Origin: Planctomycetota bacterium
Lineage (GTDB): Bacteria; Planctomycetota; SZUA-567; H5-PLA8
Assembly: GCA_038227875.1 (NCBI GenBank)
Contig: JBBRPR010000001.1
Location: 128,001 to 192,000, forward strand
Reading direction: 5' to 3'
Length of the DNA stretch: 64,000 nucleotides
Position 1 is the first letter of the stretch, and each line of letters starts with the position of its first letter. The position numbers were made by a program, and so were the translations under genes. The notes under the pieces are model-generated. The model saw nothing but the letters and a program-made list of their open reading frames with translations. It was not told the DNA's origin and did not search any database. Of the stretch, positions 8,240 through 50,391 are shown one piece after another.

Positions 8240-8276
8240 GGTCAATTTGACCCTCGGGTAAATTTACCCGAGGGTC
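8240..8276. repeat. Two chained palindromes, the second a perfect 28-mer
   Basis: GGTCAA-T-TTGACC (8240-8252) overlaps GACCCTCGGGTAAA|TTTACCCGAGGGTC (8249-8276). Confidence 0.9.
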
Positions 8277-8279
8277 CGT

Positions 8280-8398
8280 TTTGTAGTCCGGGCGTCTCGC
8301 CCGATCGGTGACGGACGGACGATTCTTGCAAGAGCCGTGACGTCGGTTTCGCAGCGCGCAATTTTCAAGAGGACCGGGCGGGACGCCCGGACTACGAA
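8280..8398. repeat. Inverted pair of GTAG-type REP sequences (REPIN-like)
   Basis: GTAGTCCGGGCGTCTCGCCCG at 8283 and the inverted copy GACCGGGCGGGACGCCCGGACTACGAA at 8372-8398. Confidence 0.8.
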
Positions 8399-8402
8399 CC
8401 GC

Positions 8403-9258: not shown

Positions 9259-9359
9259 GTGCTTAGGGACAGCTGTCCCTAAGCACCTTGTCACAAAGTT
9301 GCAACAGGGTGTTTGCTTTTGAACATCGGATAAATTTATGCCGACGTATCCGAATCCGT
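9259..9359. repeat. Chain of about five palindromes starting with a perfect 28-mer
   Basis: GTGCTTAGGGACAG|CTGTCCCTAAGCAC, then imperfect CACCTTGTCACAAAGTTGCAACAGGGTG, TGTT..AACA, TCGG-ATAAATTTAT-gCCGA and ACGTATCCGAATCCGT. Confidence 0.85.
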
Positions 9360-20424: not shown

Positions 20425-23388
20425 TTGATCAAGACTCTTACGGCGACAACTCTAGTATACCTCGTGCTCCTATCAGCGACGTGCGCCGCCACGGAGATTC
20501 CACCGGCGATCGTGATGACACCCGAACGCCTCGCGCAGCTCAAGCAGGGCGTCGATGCCTGGTACGTGGGCGATTCGGGGACGCAGCATTTTGAGGTCGC
20601 GTTCAACGCGCAGTCGAACACGCTCACGTTTAAGTACACCCAGGAGGTGAAGCGCAATCCCAATCAGGAAGAGTGGGATCTGAAAGGGGAGGCGGAGTTC
20701 TCCGCCGACGTTACGCCGCGGCTGATTTCTTTTCGCAGAGAAAAGCCCTACTGGCGAAAAAGCGATGCCCACGGCACGGTCAACGGCGAGACGCTCAAAG
20801 GCGTGGACTTTGACGGCGATGCGTACACGCTGCCGTATCACGGCGAACTGCTGCCGGACTTCGCGATCGGCTTCGCGGTGCTGGCGATGGACTGGAGCCG
20901 CGCTGAGAAATTCAACCTGATCACGCTCGACGTGGAAGCGCAGGACGTGCTGCCGCCGATCGCGGGTATTCCGCATCTGACACCGCCGTCCGAACGCAGC
21001 GTGAAGATTGAAAATATACAGTACAACCTGGACGAGAAGGGCGCGCTCACTGCACTTTCGAAAACCACGGGCAAGAAACACCGTTGGACGCTGGCGAAGA
21101 CGCCGCCGACACCGAGCCCGGAGACCAAAGAACCGGAGCAGGTGGACGACGCAATCACCAACGCCGCGGTCTCAAGCGTGCTCAAGAATCCGCCCGCCAC
21201 CGGGCAGATGATTCAAAACGCCAACGAACATGCATTTAAAGTAGGCGTACGCCCGGGCGATCTGTTGACAAAATACGAGGGGACGCCGCTCGACAGTTTG
21301 GACGCGCTGACCAAGGCCATCGCCGCCGCGTCGAAAGCGGGAAAGAAGACCGCGGAGATCGAGCTGCTCCGCGACGGAAAGGCGATGACGCTGCAGATTC
21401 CCGAAGGCAAGATCGGCATCGGTCCGCTGACTGTCGTCAAAGGCGTCGAGACGAATCTGGACAACGCCATGTTCGGTCCGATGGGTTACGGCCCCGGCCC
21501 GCGTCCGACGCCGACAAAGTACGAGAAACTCGCGCGCGAAAAGTGCGGCTCGCAGGTCCCGTGGAGTTCCGACTACGCCGCAGCGCTCGCGCAGGCCAAG
21601 GAGCAGCACAAAGTTCTGCTCTGGTGGGCGACGCCGATTCACGGGTCATCGATCTACCGCATCGACATCTTCGACGATTTTCTGAACGTGGGCCTGTTCA
21701 CCGATCCAGAGGTCGTGGCGTTCGTGAACACGAATTTCGTCACGTTCAAGGGACCGCTGACGCGCAAGCAGATGGACGAGTTCCATGTGGATTTCCTGAA
21801 CGCGCCGGCATTTCTGTTCGTGGGCTCGGATGGAAAGTTGATGCATTACCTCGATGGGCTGACGATGATTCAGAAGGATTTTTTTCTGGGCGAGTTCAAC
21901 GTGGTGCTCGCCAATTCGCCAGGCTTCGTAGCTAATACGGTCGAACCCTCCCCATTTGAAAAGGCAGCGCAACTCGCGAGATCCGGCACCTGGAAAGACG
22001 GCGCAGAACTCCTGTCCAAACGTGTCGATGCGGGCGCCGATGCGAAAGACTTCTCGCCGCTGACCGACCTGGCGTGGCTCTACTTTCGTTCAGCTGATTT
22101 TGACCGAGCGCTGAGTACGCTGAAATCCATGCCGACGGTCGCCACCGCTGACTCTCGTGCCGTCGAACGACTGTACGTCAATGGTGCGATCATGCTCTTC
22201 ATGAACAAGGACGATGAAGCGCGCGCGTTTTGGCAACAGGCCGCCGATAAAGATCCCAACGATCCATGGGCCTGGCGTTCAGCAGCCGAAATGGAAAATA
22301 TCGGCCCGCTGTCGCGTGGCGTGGAATCGCCGTTCTGGATTCCCGACGGAGTCATCCCGAAGGACGTGACACTCGCCACGCTGCCGCATACGACGCGTGG
22401 AGTCGCGCCAGAAGCAGATGTGAAGACTGCGGCTCGCATCGGTGTCGAATACCTGCTCGAACACCAGTCCGCCAACGGCGGCTGGAACGATACCAACTAC
22501 GACTTCGGCGGCTTGCGCGCGATGCCCAACGTCCGCACCGCCGTCACCGCGATCTGCGCCGAGGCGCTGCTGGCGCACCGCGATCTGGAACCGGCGCGCA
22601 TCGACGCCGCCTTGAATCGCGCCTTTGTCTATCTCACCGATCCCAAACACCTCACGCTGGACGACAAGAACGAAATCATCTGGCCGCACATTTATCGGCT
22701 CAACTTTTACGCCGCCTGGCTGCCCACCTGCAGCGCGGAGATGAAACCGAAGCTGCTCCAGGAAATGAAAACGATCGCCGATGGGTTGACCAAAAATCAT
22801 CTCGGCAAAACCGGCTTCTACCGACACGAATACGAGAACGATTTCGTCACCGGCTCGGTGCTGCTCTCATTGAAGCTCGTCAAGGACGCCGGCAGTCCCG
22901 TCGACACCGCCGCGATTGCCAAGTCGCTCGACGCGCTGGAAAGACTCCGCTCGCCGCGCGGCACGTTTCCCTATGCTCCCGAACCCGGCACCGGGCCAGA
23001 GCCGTGGAAAGGCAGCGCGGGTCGCACGATCAATTGCGACGCGGCGTTGCTGGCGTGGGGGCGCGGCTCAGCCGATCAATTGCGCGAAGCCATCGAGAAG
23101 TACATTCAATTCAACTTCGTCCAGGAGCGCGTGCGCAAGCAGACGTTCCATTCCGACGCGTACCGCATCGGCGGTTTCTTCTACTGGTACAACCAGCACG
23201 TCTTGAGCCAGGTGATTACGCTCACCGACCCAGCCACCGCGAAAAAAGCCGCGGCGTTCATGCGCGACATGGTGCTCGCCACCCGCGAAGCCGACGGCAC
23301 GTGGGTCGATTCGATCGAACTGGGCAAGACCTACGCGACAGGCATGGCGCTGCTGGTGCTCGAGGCGGCGAAGCGGTTTGGAAAGTGA
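20425..23388 (+). CDS. Secreted multidomain protein: PDZ + thioredoxin-like + TPR + prenyltransferase-like alpha/alpha barrel
   Basis: GVRPGDLLTKYEG..LLRDGK (PDZ); W..DYAAALAQAKEQHK (Trx-like); YLLEHQSANGGW and READGTW (QxxxGxW-like). Start uncertain: TTG 20425 follows GAGGTG; the ORF opens at 20344. Confidence 0.7.
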   Translation: MIKTLTATTLVYLVLLSATCAATEIPPAIVMTPERLAQLKQGVDAWYVGDSGTQHFEVAFNAQSNTLTFKYTQEVKRNPNQEEWDLKGEAEFSADVTPRLISFRREKPYWRKSDAHGTVNGETLKGVDFDGDAYTLPYHGELLPDFAIGFAVLAMDWSRAEKFNLITLDVEAQDVLPPIAGIPHLTPPSERSVKIENIQYNLDEKGALTALSKTTGKKHRWTLAKTPPTPSPETKEPEQVDDAITNAAVSSVLKNPPATGQMIQNANEHAFKVGVRPGDLLTKYEGTPLDSLDALTKAIAAASKAGKKTAEIELLRDGKAMTLQIPEGKIGIGPLTVVKGVETNLDNAMFGPMGYGPGPRPTPTKYEKLAREKCGSQVPWSSDYAAALAQAKEQHKVLLWWATPIHGSSIYRIDIFDDFLNVGLFTDPEVVAFVNTNFVTFKGPLTRKQMDEFHVDFLNAPAFLFVGSDGKLMHYLDGLTMIQKDFFLGEFNVVLANSPGFVANTVEPSPFEKAAQLARSGTWKDGAELLSKRVDAGADAKDFSPLTDLAWLYFRSADFDRALSTLKSMPTVATADSRAVERLYVNGAIMLFMNKDDEARAFWQQAADKDPNDPWAWRSAAEMENIGPLSRGVESPFWIPDGVIPKDVTLATLPHTTRGVAPEADVKTAARIGVEYLLEHQSANGGWNDTNYDFGGLRAMPNVRTAVTAICAEALLAHRDLEPARIDAALNRAFVYLTDPKHLTLDDKNEIIWPHIYRLNFYAAWLPTCSAEMKPKLLQEMKTIADGLTKNHLGKTGFYRHEYENDFVTGSVLLSLKLVKDAGSPVDTAAIAKSLDALERLRSPRGTFPYAPEPGTGPEPWKGSAGRTINCDAALLAWGRGSADQLREAIEKYIQFNFVQERVRKQTFHSDAYRIGGFFYWYNQHVLSQVITLTDPATAKKAAAFMRDMVLATREADGTWVDSIELGKTYATGMALLVLEAAKRFGK

Positions 23389-45430: not shown

Positions 45431-46183
45431 CTATTTACCTGCCGCCGCCTTGTCGAGGAAGAACGTCACCACGCCGCTGCATTTGCGGACCAGGCGCGAG
45501 ACCGGCGGATCGGTCGGCTCGGTTTCGCTGAAGATCTTCGCCAGCATCGGCGTTTTCTCCGCGCCTGTGGCGAGCACGAAAATGTTCTTCGCATTCCAGA
45601 TCACCGGCGAGGTAATGGTGATGCGCTTCACCGCCGGCTTGACTGCGGGGTTGAAGGAATTGGGATCGCAGGTCGTCGTCCACTTCACCACTTCCAGCGG
45701 CGCGGGCGTGCCGGGGAAAAGCGATGCGGTGTGGCCGTCGGGGCCGATGCCCAGCAGGATCAGATCGAAGACCGGGAAGCCATAACTGGGCTGGGTGAAC
45801 TGCGCGCGCAGCACCTTGTCAAACTTGTCGGCGCAGGCTTCGACTGTGCCGTCTGTCGAAATTGGGAAGACGTTCTCTTTGGGAATCGGCGCGCTGCTGA
45901 GCATCGCCTCGGTAGCCATGCGCAGATTGGAATCAGGGCTGTCGGTCTTCACGTGGCGTTCGTCGCCGAAGAAAATCTTCGTCTGCTTCCACGGCATGCG
46001 CTTCACCAGCGGTTCGGAGGCCATCAGACTGTAGGCGAGCTTCGGCGTCGAGCCGCCGGAAAGTGCGATGGTGAACGTCCCGGTGTTGGCCGCGGTCCGT
46101 TCCGCCAGAGCCACTATTTCCTCCGCTGCAGCCTTGCCGACCGCGGCATTGTCGGGACTGACATTCTGTATGAAATTTGGCAT
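45431..46183 (-). CDS. pgl: 6-phosphogluconolactonase
   Basis: ALSGGSTP, FFGDERHV, DSN, LLGIGPDGHTASLFP, RITIT. Confidence 0.95.
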   Translation of the reverse strand: MPNFIQNVSPDNAAVGKAAAEEIVALAERTAANTGTFTIALSGGSTPKLAYSLMASEPLVKRMPWKQTKIFFGDERHVKTDSPDSNLRMATEAMLSSAPIPKENVFPISTDGTVEACADKFDKVLRAQFTQPSYGFPVFDLILLGIGPDGHTASLFPGTPAPLEVVKWTTTCDPNSFNPAVKPAVKRITITSPVIWNAKNIFVLATGAEKTPMLAKIFSETEPTDPPVSRLVRKCSGVVTFFLDKAAAGK

Positions 46184-46269
46184 TGGCGCGAAGCCTCCCT
46201 TTTATAGAGTGAAGTCGAACCAACTTAACGATGCACCTCGAAAGAGGCAAGAGGCGAACGGCCTGCAGT

Positions 46270-46296
46270 TTCGTAGTCCGGGCGTCCCGCCCGGTC
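46270..46296 (+). repeat. GTAG-type REP, single copy
   Basis: TTCGTAGTCCGGGCGTCCCGCCCGGTC, identical over 27 bp to the reverse complement of 8372-8398. Confidence 0.85.
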
Positions 46297-46314
46297 TAAC
46301 CTCGGCACTCACCT

Positions 46315-46505
46315 GCCAATTGGCCATGCGGTTAAAACCCAACATGGGGACTGTAGTCCCTATCCACCTTTTAAATGGATGCTGAAGGTCAGCATCTGCA
46401 AATTTGCCAGAACCACTACTAATGGTAGTGTTGTACCCGTGGTACACCTTGTTGCAAATTTGCAACAAGGTCATTTTGACCTCCGGGCCACGTGGCCCGG
46501 AGGTC
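46315..46505. repeat. Array of about 11 different end-overlapping palindromes
   Basis: Read directly from the sequence; includes perfect 26-bp ACCTTGTTGCAAA|TTTGCAACAAGGT and 28-bp GACCTCCGGGCCAC|GTGGCCCGGAGGTC. Confidence 0.9.
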
Positions 46506-46635
46506 TCCTCCTCAATCGTTCGTTTAATGAATGGAACGCGCGAATTTCCGTGACTTTCGCGGTAGCCGGGTAGTCTTAGAAGTACTATTCCTTGTAACAG
46601 TTCCCACCGTGCGGGATCAGTAGTCACGAACGGGG

Positions 46636-48048
46636 ATGAAACGCTTGTCCAACGAGACGGTCACCCTAAGCACGACTGAGGCTCTTCGCTGCCTGGCGAA
46701 GGGGCCGGATGATCATGCTTGGACGACAGTTCTGGACCGGCATGGCGTGGAAATTCTGCACGCCACCCAACGCATCCTTGGCGATCCCATGTCCGCGGAA
46801 GACGCCTGTCAGGAAACACTTCTGCAGATTCGCGATCGGGCGTCGCAGTTTCGCGGCCGACCCGGCGCTCCGGACACGATGGCGAGGAACTGGATCATGC
46901 GCATCGCATGCAACACGGCGCTTCACATGCTGCGCCAGCGAAGACGCTCCAAGCTGCGCGAACAGAACGTCGCGCGCGAAGCGCCACAGCTGGTCGACGC
47001 GCCCGACCACAATCCCAATCCCAACGACGAACTCGCGCAGCGCGTTCGCGCCGAGCTGGCCGAACTACCCGAGAAGCAGCGCCTGCCGCTGGTGCTCCAT
47101 TTCTTCGCCGGATTGAATTACGAACAAATCTCGCTCGAATTGCGCTGCGGCGCCGGCGCTGCCCGCGTGCGCGTCCACCGCGCGCTGGAAAAACTGCGCG
47201 AACGCATGGCGCTCGTCGGCTTCGTCGTCACCACCGCGGCGCTCTACACGCTGCTCTCCAGCTCCACGGCCTCGGCCGCCGAAGCGGTCTTAAGCCCCGA
47301 ACGCTTCGCCCGCTGGCACGGTCTGCTGATGAGCTCCCAGCACGCCGCGATTAATGTTGTCACCGATCCGGGCTTCACCGCCGTCAGCAAGATCGGCTTT
47401 GCGGCCGCCGCCTCGGCCGTCTGTGGATCGATCGCGCTAACCTGCGGCCAGAAAGCGCCGGCCCAGCCGCAGTCGCCGAACCCGACGCCGCTCACCACGC
47501 AAATTCAGCCTGCCGCGGAGCGCGAATCCGCCAACTCGTCACCGGCGACGCGTCCGTCAGCCGAGCCAAAATTGCCCGCGTCGGCAACCGTCGGATCCGC
47601 GGCTGCGAAGACCACTCCGGTTTCCAAATCGACTCAGGAAGTCGCGAAAGCTCCCGCGGTCATCGCGCCAGAGCCGCCACCGAGCGCCAAACCCGCGCAA
47701 CGCCGCACGGCCGCCGAAAAAGCCGAACGCGCCGCCGCGCGAACCGCGGCTGCCAATGCGCGTAACGACGGCAGCGCTTACAACCCCAGCGAAACGGTCG
47801 AGAACGAACTGGCCTCACCGCTGGCGCAGCTTGAAATGGTGCGGATGATGCAGCACGAATTGAACCTCCGCGTCGCGCGCATCCACGACAACATCCGCGC
47901 GCACGGCATGCTCACCGTTGAAGACCAGATGCATCTGCAGCGCGCCGCGGATGAGCAGAATGAACTCGCCAATCTGGTCCGGCACCTCAGCGATGAAATC
48001 CGCTACTGCCAGCCGCCCGAAAGCGAACACGCGGGGCTGGGCAAGTAA
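46636..48048 (+). CDS. ECF sigma factor with long C-terminal extension
   Basis: AEDACQETLL, NWIMRIACN, LPEKQRLPLVL, YEQIS, RVHRALEKLR; then hydrophobic, Pro/Ala-rich and helical segments. Confidence 0.88.
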   Translation: MKRLSNETVTLSTTEALRCLAKGPDDHAWTTVLDRHGVEILHATQRILGDPMSAEDACQETLLQIRDRASQFRGRPGAPDTMARNWIMRIACNTALHMLRQRRRSKLREQNVAREAPQLVDAPDHNPNPNDELAQRVRAELAELPEKQRLPLVLHFFAGLNYEQISLELRCGAGAARVRVHRALEKLRERMALVGFVVTTAALYTLLSSSTASAAEAVLSPERFARWHGLLMSSQHAAINVVTDPGFTAVSKIGFAAAASAVCGSIALTCGQKAPAQPQSPNPTPLTTQIQPAAERESANSSPATRPSAEPKLPASATVGSAAAKTTPVSKSTQEVAKAPAVIAPEPPPSAKPAQRRTAAEKAERAAARTAAANARNDGSAYNPSETVENELASPLAQLEMVRMMQHELNLRVARIHDNIRAHGMLTVEDQMHLQRAADEQNELANLVRHLSDEIRYCQPPESEHAGLGK

Positions 48049-50200: not shown

Positions 50201-50391
50201 CGCCCTTCCAAGGCGCGGCTCATCCGAGCGGATTGGACCAAGGGCTGCCGCCCATGGCTATTGACGGTCGGCCTTCCAGGCCGAGAGCAACGGTAACGGC
50301 GGGGCGCTTTTGTGTATTCAACGCCGCAGGAACCATCCACCTTGGGATGCGAGGTCGCACTGGTGGCTAAACGGACAGCCACCAGTGGCAC
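50201..50391. repeat. Cluster of REP-like hairpins
   Basis: CGCCcTTCCAAGGCG, CCAAGGGC..GCCCATGG, TCGGCCTTCCAGGCCGA, and CACTGGTGGCT-aaacggac-AGCCACCAGTG. Confidence 0.6.

Follow-up and report, generated by a model that had tools for sequence, protein, structure and literature searches.

A palindrome array between pgl and a sigma-factor gene in a planctomycete is a mosaic of dispersed palindromic repeats

The gap between pgl and an ECF-type sigma factor gene in this planctomycete contains a chain of palindromes, and the gap is a mosaic of repeat families that are dispersed over the whole genome, with no system of the locus' own. On balance, the locus is probably a non-specific pile-up of dispersed palindromic repeats comparable to a BIME or NIME. 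It lies in a stretch of 64,000 nucleotides (the window), to which all positions refer, and the assembly is a draft of 9.34 Mb in 176 contigs that is 88% complete. Gene calls used for genome-wide counts are our own and crude. Two genes flank the array, both outside the element:

45431 to 46183, minus strand: pgl (6-phosphogluconolactonase; Pfam PF01182, E=1.2e-63), the left flank
46636 to 48048, plus strand: gene for an ECF-type sigma factor of 470 aa, with Pfam Sigma70_r2 and Sigma70_r4_2 in residues 34-189, the right flank

All 11 palindromes listed in the first-pass annotation of the window were found where they had been placed, by direct reading, a repeat search and a scan for perfect stems of at least 5 bp with loops of up to 9. 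The scan recovered 46315-24, 46347-60, 46362-80, 46378-96, 46398-407, 46414-30, 46432-46, 46446-71 (13+13, no loop), 46468-82 and 46478-505 (14+14, no loop), and the composite palindrome at 46324-47 was confirmed by direct reading of the sequence. Two hairpins absent from the earlier list were also resolved, one at 46278-94 and a small one at 46499-511. The centres computed from the scan are 15.5-19.5 bp apart, in agreement with the spacing of about 15-20 bp that had been claimed. The regular step of about 17 bp is partly a by-product, because the hairpin at 46468-82 arises from the abutting ends of two long palindromes; the commonest true distance between long units is 33 bp, seen in 7 of 31 neighbouring pairs. 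Thus, the 11 palindromes are all present but are not independent units: one is this junction, and several others lie within one longer repeat.

To measure the chain against chance, the segment 46315-46511 was shuffled 1000 times with its dinucleotides preserved. The real sequence has 166 of 197 bases covered by palindromes (shuffles 27±18, maximum 95), 11 palindromes (1.95±1.4, maximum 7) and a summed stem length of 79 (10.5±7.4, maximum 36), so that local shuffling yields no comparable chain. Among 465,252 overlapping 200-bp windows of the genome, the array ranks top by covered bases (160), and a locally shuffled genome reaches 146, which makes the raw cover only modestly extreme. Raw cover was therefore dropped as too weak a genome-wide statistic and replaced by stem-length and length-weighted scores; stems of at least 11 bp number 711 in the genome and 49 after shuffling. 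That the densest window by raw cover lies here also speaks against a plain pile-up, in that selection for density at the spot between pgl and the sigma factor gene is conceivable.

The possibility that the chain was produced by the assembly, for example through a chimeric join of repeat reads, was weighed against contigs from independent runs. De Bruijn contigs do break at 46278-93 and 46479-506, which are repeat edges. Nevertheless, a contig of run X1 spans 46278-46506 and contigs of run X2, from another study, span 46362-46507 and 46478-46618, all with 0 differences, so that contigs of the two studies cover 46278-46506 and 46362-46618, respectively, and overlap the unique flanks. Both samples that contain the array are identical in it. 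The probability of an artefact is negligible given this exact support, and the palindrome chain is real and beyond chance.

The gap was dissected by a short-word BLAST search against the genome and by mismatch counts with reversed-sequence controls. From left to right it consists of a GTAG-tagged REP hairpin, an element that we call B, two locus-specific palindromes, an element that we call C and a further 26-bp unit:

46271 to 46300, plus strand: GTAG-tagged REP-type hairpin with a perfect stem at 46278-46294 (7 bp, loop 3) and extended arms at 46274-84 and 46288-98
46313 to 46365, plus strand: element B, about 50 bp, containing the palindromes 46315-24, 46324-47 and 46344-63
46362 to 46396, no strand: two palindromes of this locus only, 46362-80 and 46378-96
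46395 to 46482, plus strand: element C, a dispersed 75-bp repeat with two palindrome slots, a scaffold and a junction hairpin
46478 to 46505, no strand: perfect 28-bp palindrome centred on CACGTG, made up of a 26-bp ACC...GGT unit (46479-46504) extended by a single base at either end
46499 to 46511, no strand: small single-copy hairpin with a 5-bp stem that overlaps the end of the 28-mer, and is likely incidental

The REP hairpin at 46271-46300 has 50 copies with up to 3 mismatches (reversed control 0) and about 110 short-BLAST hits, and the X1 contig has a depth of about 80 times that of the flank. Each base of element B is covered by 7-17 BLAST hits elsewhere, 11 of those loci could be aligned with B, and its 18-mer at 46345-62 has 10 copies with up to 1 mismatch (reversed control 0). 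Element C is represented by 8 near-copies of the 21-mer 46412-32 and 11 near-copies of the 26-mer 46446-71, and the 28-mer 46478-505 by 6 copies with up to 3 mismatches, with a reversed control of 0 in all three cases. The stretch in between is of another kind: no BLAST hit elsewhere in the genome covers 46366-46397, and the palindromes 46362-80 and 46378-96 each have a single copy with up to 1 mismatch, which is the palindrome itself. The absence of a constant repeat, as claimed earlier, is thus true within the array; most of the parts, however, are found again at other places in the genome.

At least 40 other loci of the genome are similar mosaics, among which the array ranks about sixth by the length-weighted score. 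The eight of these loci that were read are intergenic and carry varied palindromes, and some have modules in common with the array between pgl and the sigma factor gene. The idea that the array is a candidate system of its own has to be given up on these counts, as its larger parts are dispersed between genes of every orientation and similar mosaics are numerous.

Element C shows how its palindromes change. In the present copy, a first slot (46395-411) is followed by a scaffold with two hairpins (46414-30 and 46432-46), a variable 26-bp slot (46446-71) and the junction hairpin (46468-82). Of 18 hits in an nhmmer search, 15 are complete or almost so, and the copies occupy divergent, convergent and tandem gaps. 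The comparison was made on the 10 copies with a clean register, the other 8 of the 18 hits being left out for gaps or truncation. In these copies, the mean pairwise identity falls from 0.87 across the 34-nt scaffold to 0.56 across the 20 inner nt of the slot. Complementarity is nonetheless kept in 118 of 130 slot pair cells, and 3 of 13 slot pair positions are complementary in all 10 copies through 2-4 pair types. Change is therefore much faster in the slot than in its flanks, and it is symmetrical. Among five aligned copies of one C subfamily, one is without exactly the 24-26-nt slot unit and has kept both flanks. An array built up unit by unit, as the first-pass annotation had proposed, agrees with this loss of exactly one palindrome from a paralogous copy and with the separable units; it should be noted that the unit-wise change was seen among paralogous copies and not at orthologous loci.

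The main unit of the array is a palindrome with a fixed length of 26 bp, ACC/GGT ends and a GC-AATT-GC core, whose interior varies from copy to copy with the arms remaining complementary. When palindromes of the form ACC-N20-GGT with up to 2 mismatched inner pairs were counted, 230 were found at length 26, compared with 1-44 across lengths 20-32; the 28-mer of the array is counted among them. The form ACC-N8-AATT-N8-GGT occurs at 178 sites, compared with 3-11 at other spacings. At these sites, complementarity at the eight unanchored pairs is seen in 62-94% of cases, where column composition alone would predict 30-51%, and the units comprise 144 different sequences and 184 different arms. Such pattern counts miss diverged units and are undercounts. 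The centres include AAATTT (82), CAATTG (45), GAATTC (16), CCATGG (11) and CACGTG (10), and among the 579 perfect zero-loop palindromes of at least 16 bp in the genome, 258 have an AATT centre. By our crude gene calls, 176 of the 230 units are intergenic. The AATT class is present in divergent, convergent and tandem gaps and is somewhat denser in convergent ones. The flanks of the units carry neither a target-site duplication nor a direct repeat, with conservation of at most 1 base on each side, and the profile of the unit contains no GTAG or CGTC tag. One unit in a related genome sits about 350 bp from a resolvase-like gene, from which arose the idea that the units are serine-recombinase crossover sites (26 bp with a central AT). 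As a general reading this candidate was set aside, since hundreds of active sites would be expected to scramble the chromosome.

The units have an ACC/GGT foot and a centre that are both conserved, and between them a stretch that is free in sequence but paired, as expected of a folded hairpin. Mismatches within the units are frequent at the two central pairs, as would fit a 4-base loop. These features bear on a multi-hairpin RNA, in which the array would be a structured leader or small RNA of the sigma factor gene or pgl whose hairpins control stability, termination or translation. In addition to the co-varying arms, the single strand is very stable: the ssDNA fold of 46262-46515 reaches -60.9 kcal/mol compared with -31.8±3.6 for shuffled sequences (z = -8.2), none of 200 shuffles being as stable. 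In 23 of the 230 units the 4-nt centre is not palindromic, which a hairpin loop would permit, and mismatches gather at the outer pairs as well as at the two central ones. On the other hand, most of the palindromes are perfect through the centre, and units in divergent, convergent and tandem gaps as well as inside genes stand in no fixed relation to transcription. Wobble tolerance specific to one strand was also missing, with 69 G-T against 52 A-C mismatches and, in units with two transition-type mismatches, 6 concordant against 7 discordant cases; the multi-hairpin RNA suggested earlier gains no support on this point. No Rfam match at E<=10 exceeded chance level: a permissive scan of 45500-47500 gave 7 matches, all far below their gathering scores. 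A consensus scan of the gap found 0 promoter sites, and 46100-46700 contains 0 terminator-like sites (a GC-rich hairpin followed by a T run), in line with the earlier statement that the array fits no terminator. In one RNA run, a single contig lies over 46071-46260 with 7 differences and none lies over the array, which is uninformative both ways. Taken together, we consider an RNA function unlikely.

A collection of operators for many regulators at the promoter region of pgl and the sigma factor gene, acting as a decoy or sensor array, would account for the dyad symmetry, for the location in a promoter gap between divergent genes and for the pair of palindromes (46362-96) that are found nowhere else. 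These two unique palindromes could be genuine local operators and count to that extent against a pile-up. However, the repeats that make up most of the array also occur at dozens of unrelated loci, whatever the orientation of the neighbouring genes, and 40 related genomes, none of them congeneric, have no match to the gap beside pgl or the sigma factor gene; in these genomes only the coding parts of the two genes match (67-84%) and the gap is unalignable. Nothing in the analysis ties the array to either gene. The operator collection is largely refuted by the copy counts, and we regard it as highly improbable. As a locus, the array is ordinary; intergenic palindromic pile-ups are known in other bacteria, and it should therefore not be taken for a device that regulates pgl or the sigma factor gene.

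A different role for proteins is suggested by the units that lie in coding DNA. At least seven of them, by the crude gene calls, fall in one family of ParB-like genes, to which element B is also related: B is homologous to the short stretch of these genes that contains the in-gene palindrome. In a tblastn search, members of the family turned up at 20 loci, of which about 9 hold a roughly full-length gene. About 10 solitary paralogues have a palindrome of their own, in frame and just before the helix-turn-helix, at the same codon position and with the central AAT always encoding asparagine. The four paralogues that were examined stand alone amid ordinary chromosomal genes and have no mobile-element context. 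One paralogue matches an unnamed PHROG at E=7e-26, as well as PHROG families annotated as 'ParB-like partition protein' at E=8e-17. A Pfam search with three paralogues gave no ParB domain or other family at E<=0.01, and a PDB sequence search gave one chance-level hit, with no solved structure matched.

The palindrome of each paralogue has 3-20 further exact copies on other contigs. A stretch of about 50 bp around one of them occurs in 21 copies with sharp borders, and the copies retain 10-20 bp of gene-like flank, again with sharp borders. Two parts of the array match such in-gene palindromes. One is 46347-60 together with its flank, which is found again in the paralogues that open contigs C4 and C32 and in the one on C27; the other is the inner 16 bases of the 26-mer 46446-71, which match the paralogue on C15. 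As judged by eye, the residues of the recognition helix vary among the paralogues. Viral contigs yielded 52 pattern matches, 6 of them perfect; this number may approximate chance by a rough estimate, and weight is placed only on the palindromic matches in helix-turn-helix genes. By eye, 6-8 of the 52 lie in phage genes that read x-A-N-L-x-x-G and continue with a paralogue-like helix-turn-helix.

From these results one can construct the reading that the 26-bp units are putative parS-like sites for the solitary ParB-like proteins, presumed to be CTP-dependent clamps, and that the array is a landing pad. Arrays of this kind would gather the sites of several paralogues and organise or silence the local DNA, and would resemble a pile-up in origin but differ from it by having a selected function. 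The in-frame position before the helix-turn-helix in at least seven paralogues, in a gene of a related genome and in the phage matches mentioned above points in this direction, as do the exact extra copies spread over many contigs, the match of the two array segments to the palindromes of two different paralogues and the differences in the recognition helix. A precedent exists in the ParB family, where clamps load at long palindromes, some of them in genes, according to a passage in PMC12409273; the same passage describes bisS, the site of BisD of ICEclc, as an 11-bp inverted repeat inside genes. Against a selected landing pad stand the 144 unit sequences for about 10-14 candidate readers, the co-variation of the arms at positions dispensable for a single reader, and the gene-like flanks of 10-20 bp with sharp borders, which indicate copying rather than site selection. 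The failure to match a Pfam ParB domain or a solved structure weighs on the same side. We thus hold a selected landing function to be possible but doubtful. In its widest form, which we put forward with the same reserve, a chromosome-wide parS-like network would comprise at least 10 diversified solitary ParB-like clamps, each reading its own 26-bp version, which its own gene would also contain, with sites that spread from the reader genes by short-patch copying to hundreds of intergenic places. Within such a network, arrays like 46315-46505 would let several readers land and thereby affect the organisation or expression of the DNA around them. The earlier description of the palindromes as dyad-symmetric protein-binding sites may still hold, in that the units resemble those inside ParB-type genes.

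The distribution of the family over the phylum was examined with a 26-base IUPAC pattern of the commonest unit type, which read backwards gives a control of 0 in this genome. The pattern matches 65 times here and 2, 1 or 0 times in each of 19 other genomes of the order. Among 401 genomes of the phylum, including this one, only 4 have any match (65, 2, 1 and 1). In relative G006, one of the 2 matches is inside a gene, just ahead of the helix-turn-helix. As far as the pattern traces the family, the burst of 26-bp units is specific to one lineage. A stricter pattern, applied to one genome per species, found at least 106 matching stretches; in the 80 of those listed that were inspected, at least 40 are perfect 26-bp palindromes and at least 15 have one mismatch. 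Among the matches listed, there is one per genome, in many phyla, and a few are inside helix-turn-helix genes.

Known mobilisers of short palindromes were sought in the genome. The Y1 transposase family PF01797 has 8 matches, at least 4 of them full-length genes. At the seven Y1 loci examined in this 88% complete genome, hairpins lie within 400 bp at six, with inverted pairs on both sides at three. None of the seven is flanked by 26-bp units or by the REP type of the array, as a cognate RAYT/TnpA-REP gene (a REPtron) would be, and the hairpins belong to other families, so the Y1 transposases were rejected as mobiliser of the 26-bp units. That the units are untagged, absent beside the seven Y1 loci and free of target-site duplications can be put down as an observation against a pile-up. 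In a test for MITEs, whose marks are terminal inverted repeats and a target-site duplication, three C copies proved to be bracketed by a 16-nt motif in inverted orientation, at distances of 258-309 bp. This motif has 71 copies (control 4) and forms 8 inverted pairs 106-309 bp apart, including the 3 around C copies; the locus between pgl and the sigma factor gene has no copy of it within 2 mismatches.

Under the pile-up reading that we favour, the units would enter permissive intergenic DNA as small copied patches. Hairpin-dependent copying or recognition may keep their arms complementary, as may template-switch homogenisation, a process that has been proposed for imperfect inverted repeats in bacteria (PMC5941160). 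If the units have a reader, it would most likely be the genome's own ParB-like helix-turn-helix family, in whose genes palindromes of this kind are found. An influence on the expression of pgl or the sigma factor gene, if there is one, would be incidental. The repeat family is less ordinary than the locus, with its fixed length of 26 bp, its conserved ends and centre, its variable but paired interiors, its faster divergence than that of its flanks and its burst in one lineage, and with a unit design that is common to the in-gene palindromes of phage-type ParB-like genes. If ParB-like proteins read the units, the genome would be a natural experiment in the diversification and spread of reader and site pairs; if they do not, the family offers a clean case for learning whether hairpin-dependent copying or template-switch homogenisation preserves the symmetry of short palindromes.

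The nearest known relatives of the array are the BIME and REP clusters of Enterobacteria and Pseudomonas, together with their RAYT/TnpA-REP Y1 transposases; these clusters, as described in PMC3733652 and PMC8266576, are likewise composed of extragenic short palindromes with short linkers, at high copy number and specific to a lineage. Di Nocera et al. (PMC3733652), in the passage that defines it, characterise the GTAG super-family of REPs by GTAG at one end of a palindrome of 20-40 bp. The hairpin at 46271-46300 has the GTAG tag directly preceding its stem and is extragenic and high-copy. Contrary to the earlier statement that the array fits no REP pattern, a REP-type hairpin with 50 near-copies therefore abuts it, and the genome has Y1 genes flanked by inverted hairpins. 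The likeness is one of architecture only: a BIME consists of 2-3 unit types alternating in orientation with linker motifs, whereas the gap stacks at least five unrelated families and has only one GTAG REP. The 26-bp unit also departs from BIME units in being untagged, perfect through the centre and different in the interior in almost every copy. The earlier judgement that the array is no CRISPR was sustained, as no constant repeat is present and the sole CRISPR-DR hit in Rfam scored 16 bits against a gathering score of 39.

The intergenic mosaics of Neisseria (dRS3/CGTC repeats), in which several small repeat families are interleaved according to the passage in PMC3733652, resemble the array in construction. 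They belong to another phylum and are built from other repeats with no sequence relation, and the same passage contains no counterpart to units that are variable but symmetric. The parS and bisS sites treated in PMC12409273 are like the units here in being long palindromes, some of them in genes; they are read by ParB-like helix-turn-helix proteins, as the units here may be. The palindromes here lie inside the ParB-like genes themselves and recur elsewhere. In known ParB systems a single reader serves anything from a few to some tens of near-identical sites, whereas this genome has about 10 candidate paralogues and 230 units, with 144 sequences, spread genome-wide with gene-like flanks.

Integron attC sites, which are 57-141 bp long, have conserved ends and a variable, self-complementary interior and are recognised as a folded single strand. 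The 26-bp units share the conserved ends and the variable, self-complementary interior, but there is no integrase and no gene cassette here, and the units are only 26 bp long and perfect rather than bulged. The main unit of the array represents a family of which we found no description in the literature searched, and the array as a whole is a mosaic of palindromic repeats akin to known kinds.

A 16-nt motif is present in 71 copies in the genome of this Planctomycetota bacterium (4 copies for the control) and forms eight inverted pairs with a spacing of 106–309 bp. Three of the eight pairs enclose copies of element C, a dispersed 75-bp repeat that is part of the palindrome array in the pgl/ECF-sigma gap of the window. 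These three pairs, with their palindrome-rich interiors, resemble MITEs. Example loci (C, contigs of this genome throughout) are:

C12:96524-96782
C17:42581-42890
C70:16327-16601

On the far side of the same gap, the ECF-type sigma factor (window 46636-48048) is 470 aa long with sigma-70 regions 2 and 4 confined to residues 34–189, and no Pfam family matched its last ~280 C-terminal residues. Another small palindrome mosaic was observed at window 8249-8400, as was a solitary palindrome that is not of the ACC/GGT type at 9259-9286:

8249-8276, first part of the mosaic, a member of the ACC...GGT family that is perfectly palindromic over 28 bp and centred on AAATTT
~8278-8303 and ~8372-8398, two copies of the GTAG-tagged REP hairpin type, following that palindrome
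9259-9286, solitary and intergenic, perfectly palindromic over 28 bp (14+14) and centred on CAGCTG

Elsewhere in the genome, a short tandem repeat with a 7-base unit (C25:105440-105500) is immediately preceded by a hairpin with a 15-bp stem in a gap rich in palindromes.

Palindromes were also found within genes. A phage-type ParB-like helix-turn-helix gene has ~10 solitary paralogues in the genome, four of which are surrounded by ordinary chromosomal genes. Every paralogue carries a perfect palindrome in frame directly before the helix-turn-helix, differing in sequence between paralogues, and a small conserved hairpin overlaps the start codon. The paralogues include:

C15:40521-41645
C31:44231-45286
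C11:140098-141096
C107:4325-5218
C36:85140-85826
C33:33137-34114

In a relative (G006), a perfect 26-bp unit lies within a 341-aa gene (L019, G006:C1 814-1839, minus strand), where it directly precedes a helix-turn-helix; judged by eye, the predicted product resembles a zinc-finger plus Toprim primase.

One hairpin of the window belongs to a family that flanks a Y1 transposase-like gene on C24 on both sides (C24:22150-22179 and 23001-23030):

50358-50387, hairpin with an 11-bp stem

These hairpins appear to be a second family of REPs that has a REPtron, a Y1 (RAYT/TnpA-REP) transposase gene flanked by its own REPs. Full-length Y1 transposase genes (IS200/RAYT-like, 148–179 aa) were found at four loci of the genome:

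C72:36122-36574
C3:47717-48256
C79:186-632
C9:158288-158740

The C72 and C3 genes have their own hairpins with 7–8-bp stems, as inverted copies on both sides, an arrangement like that of REPtrons.
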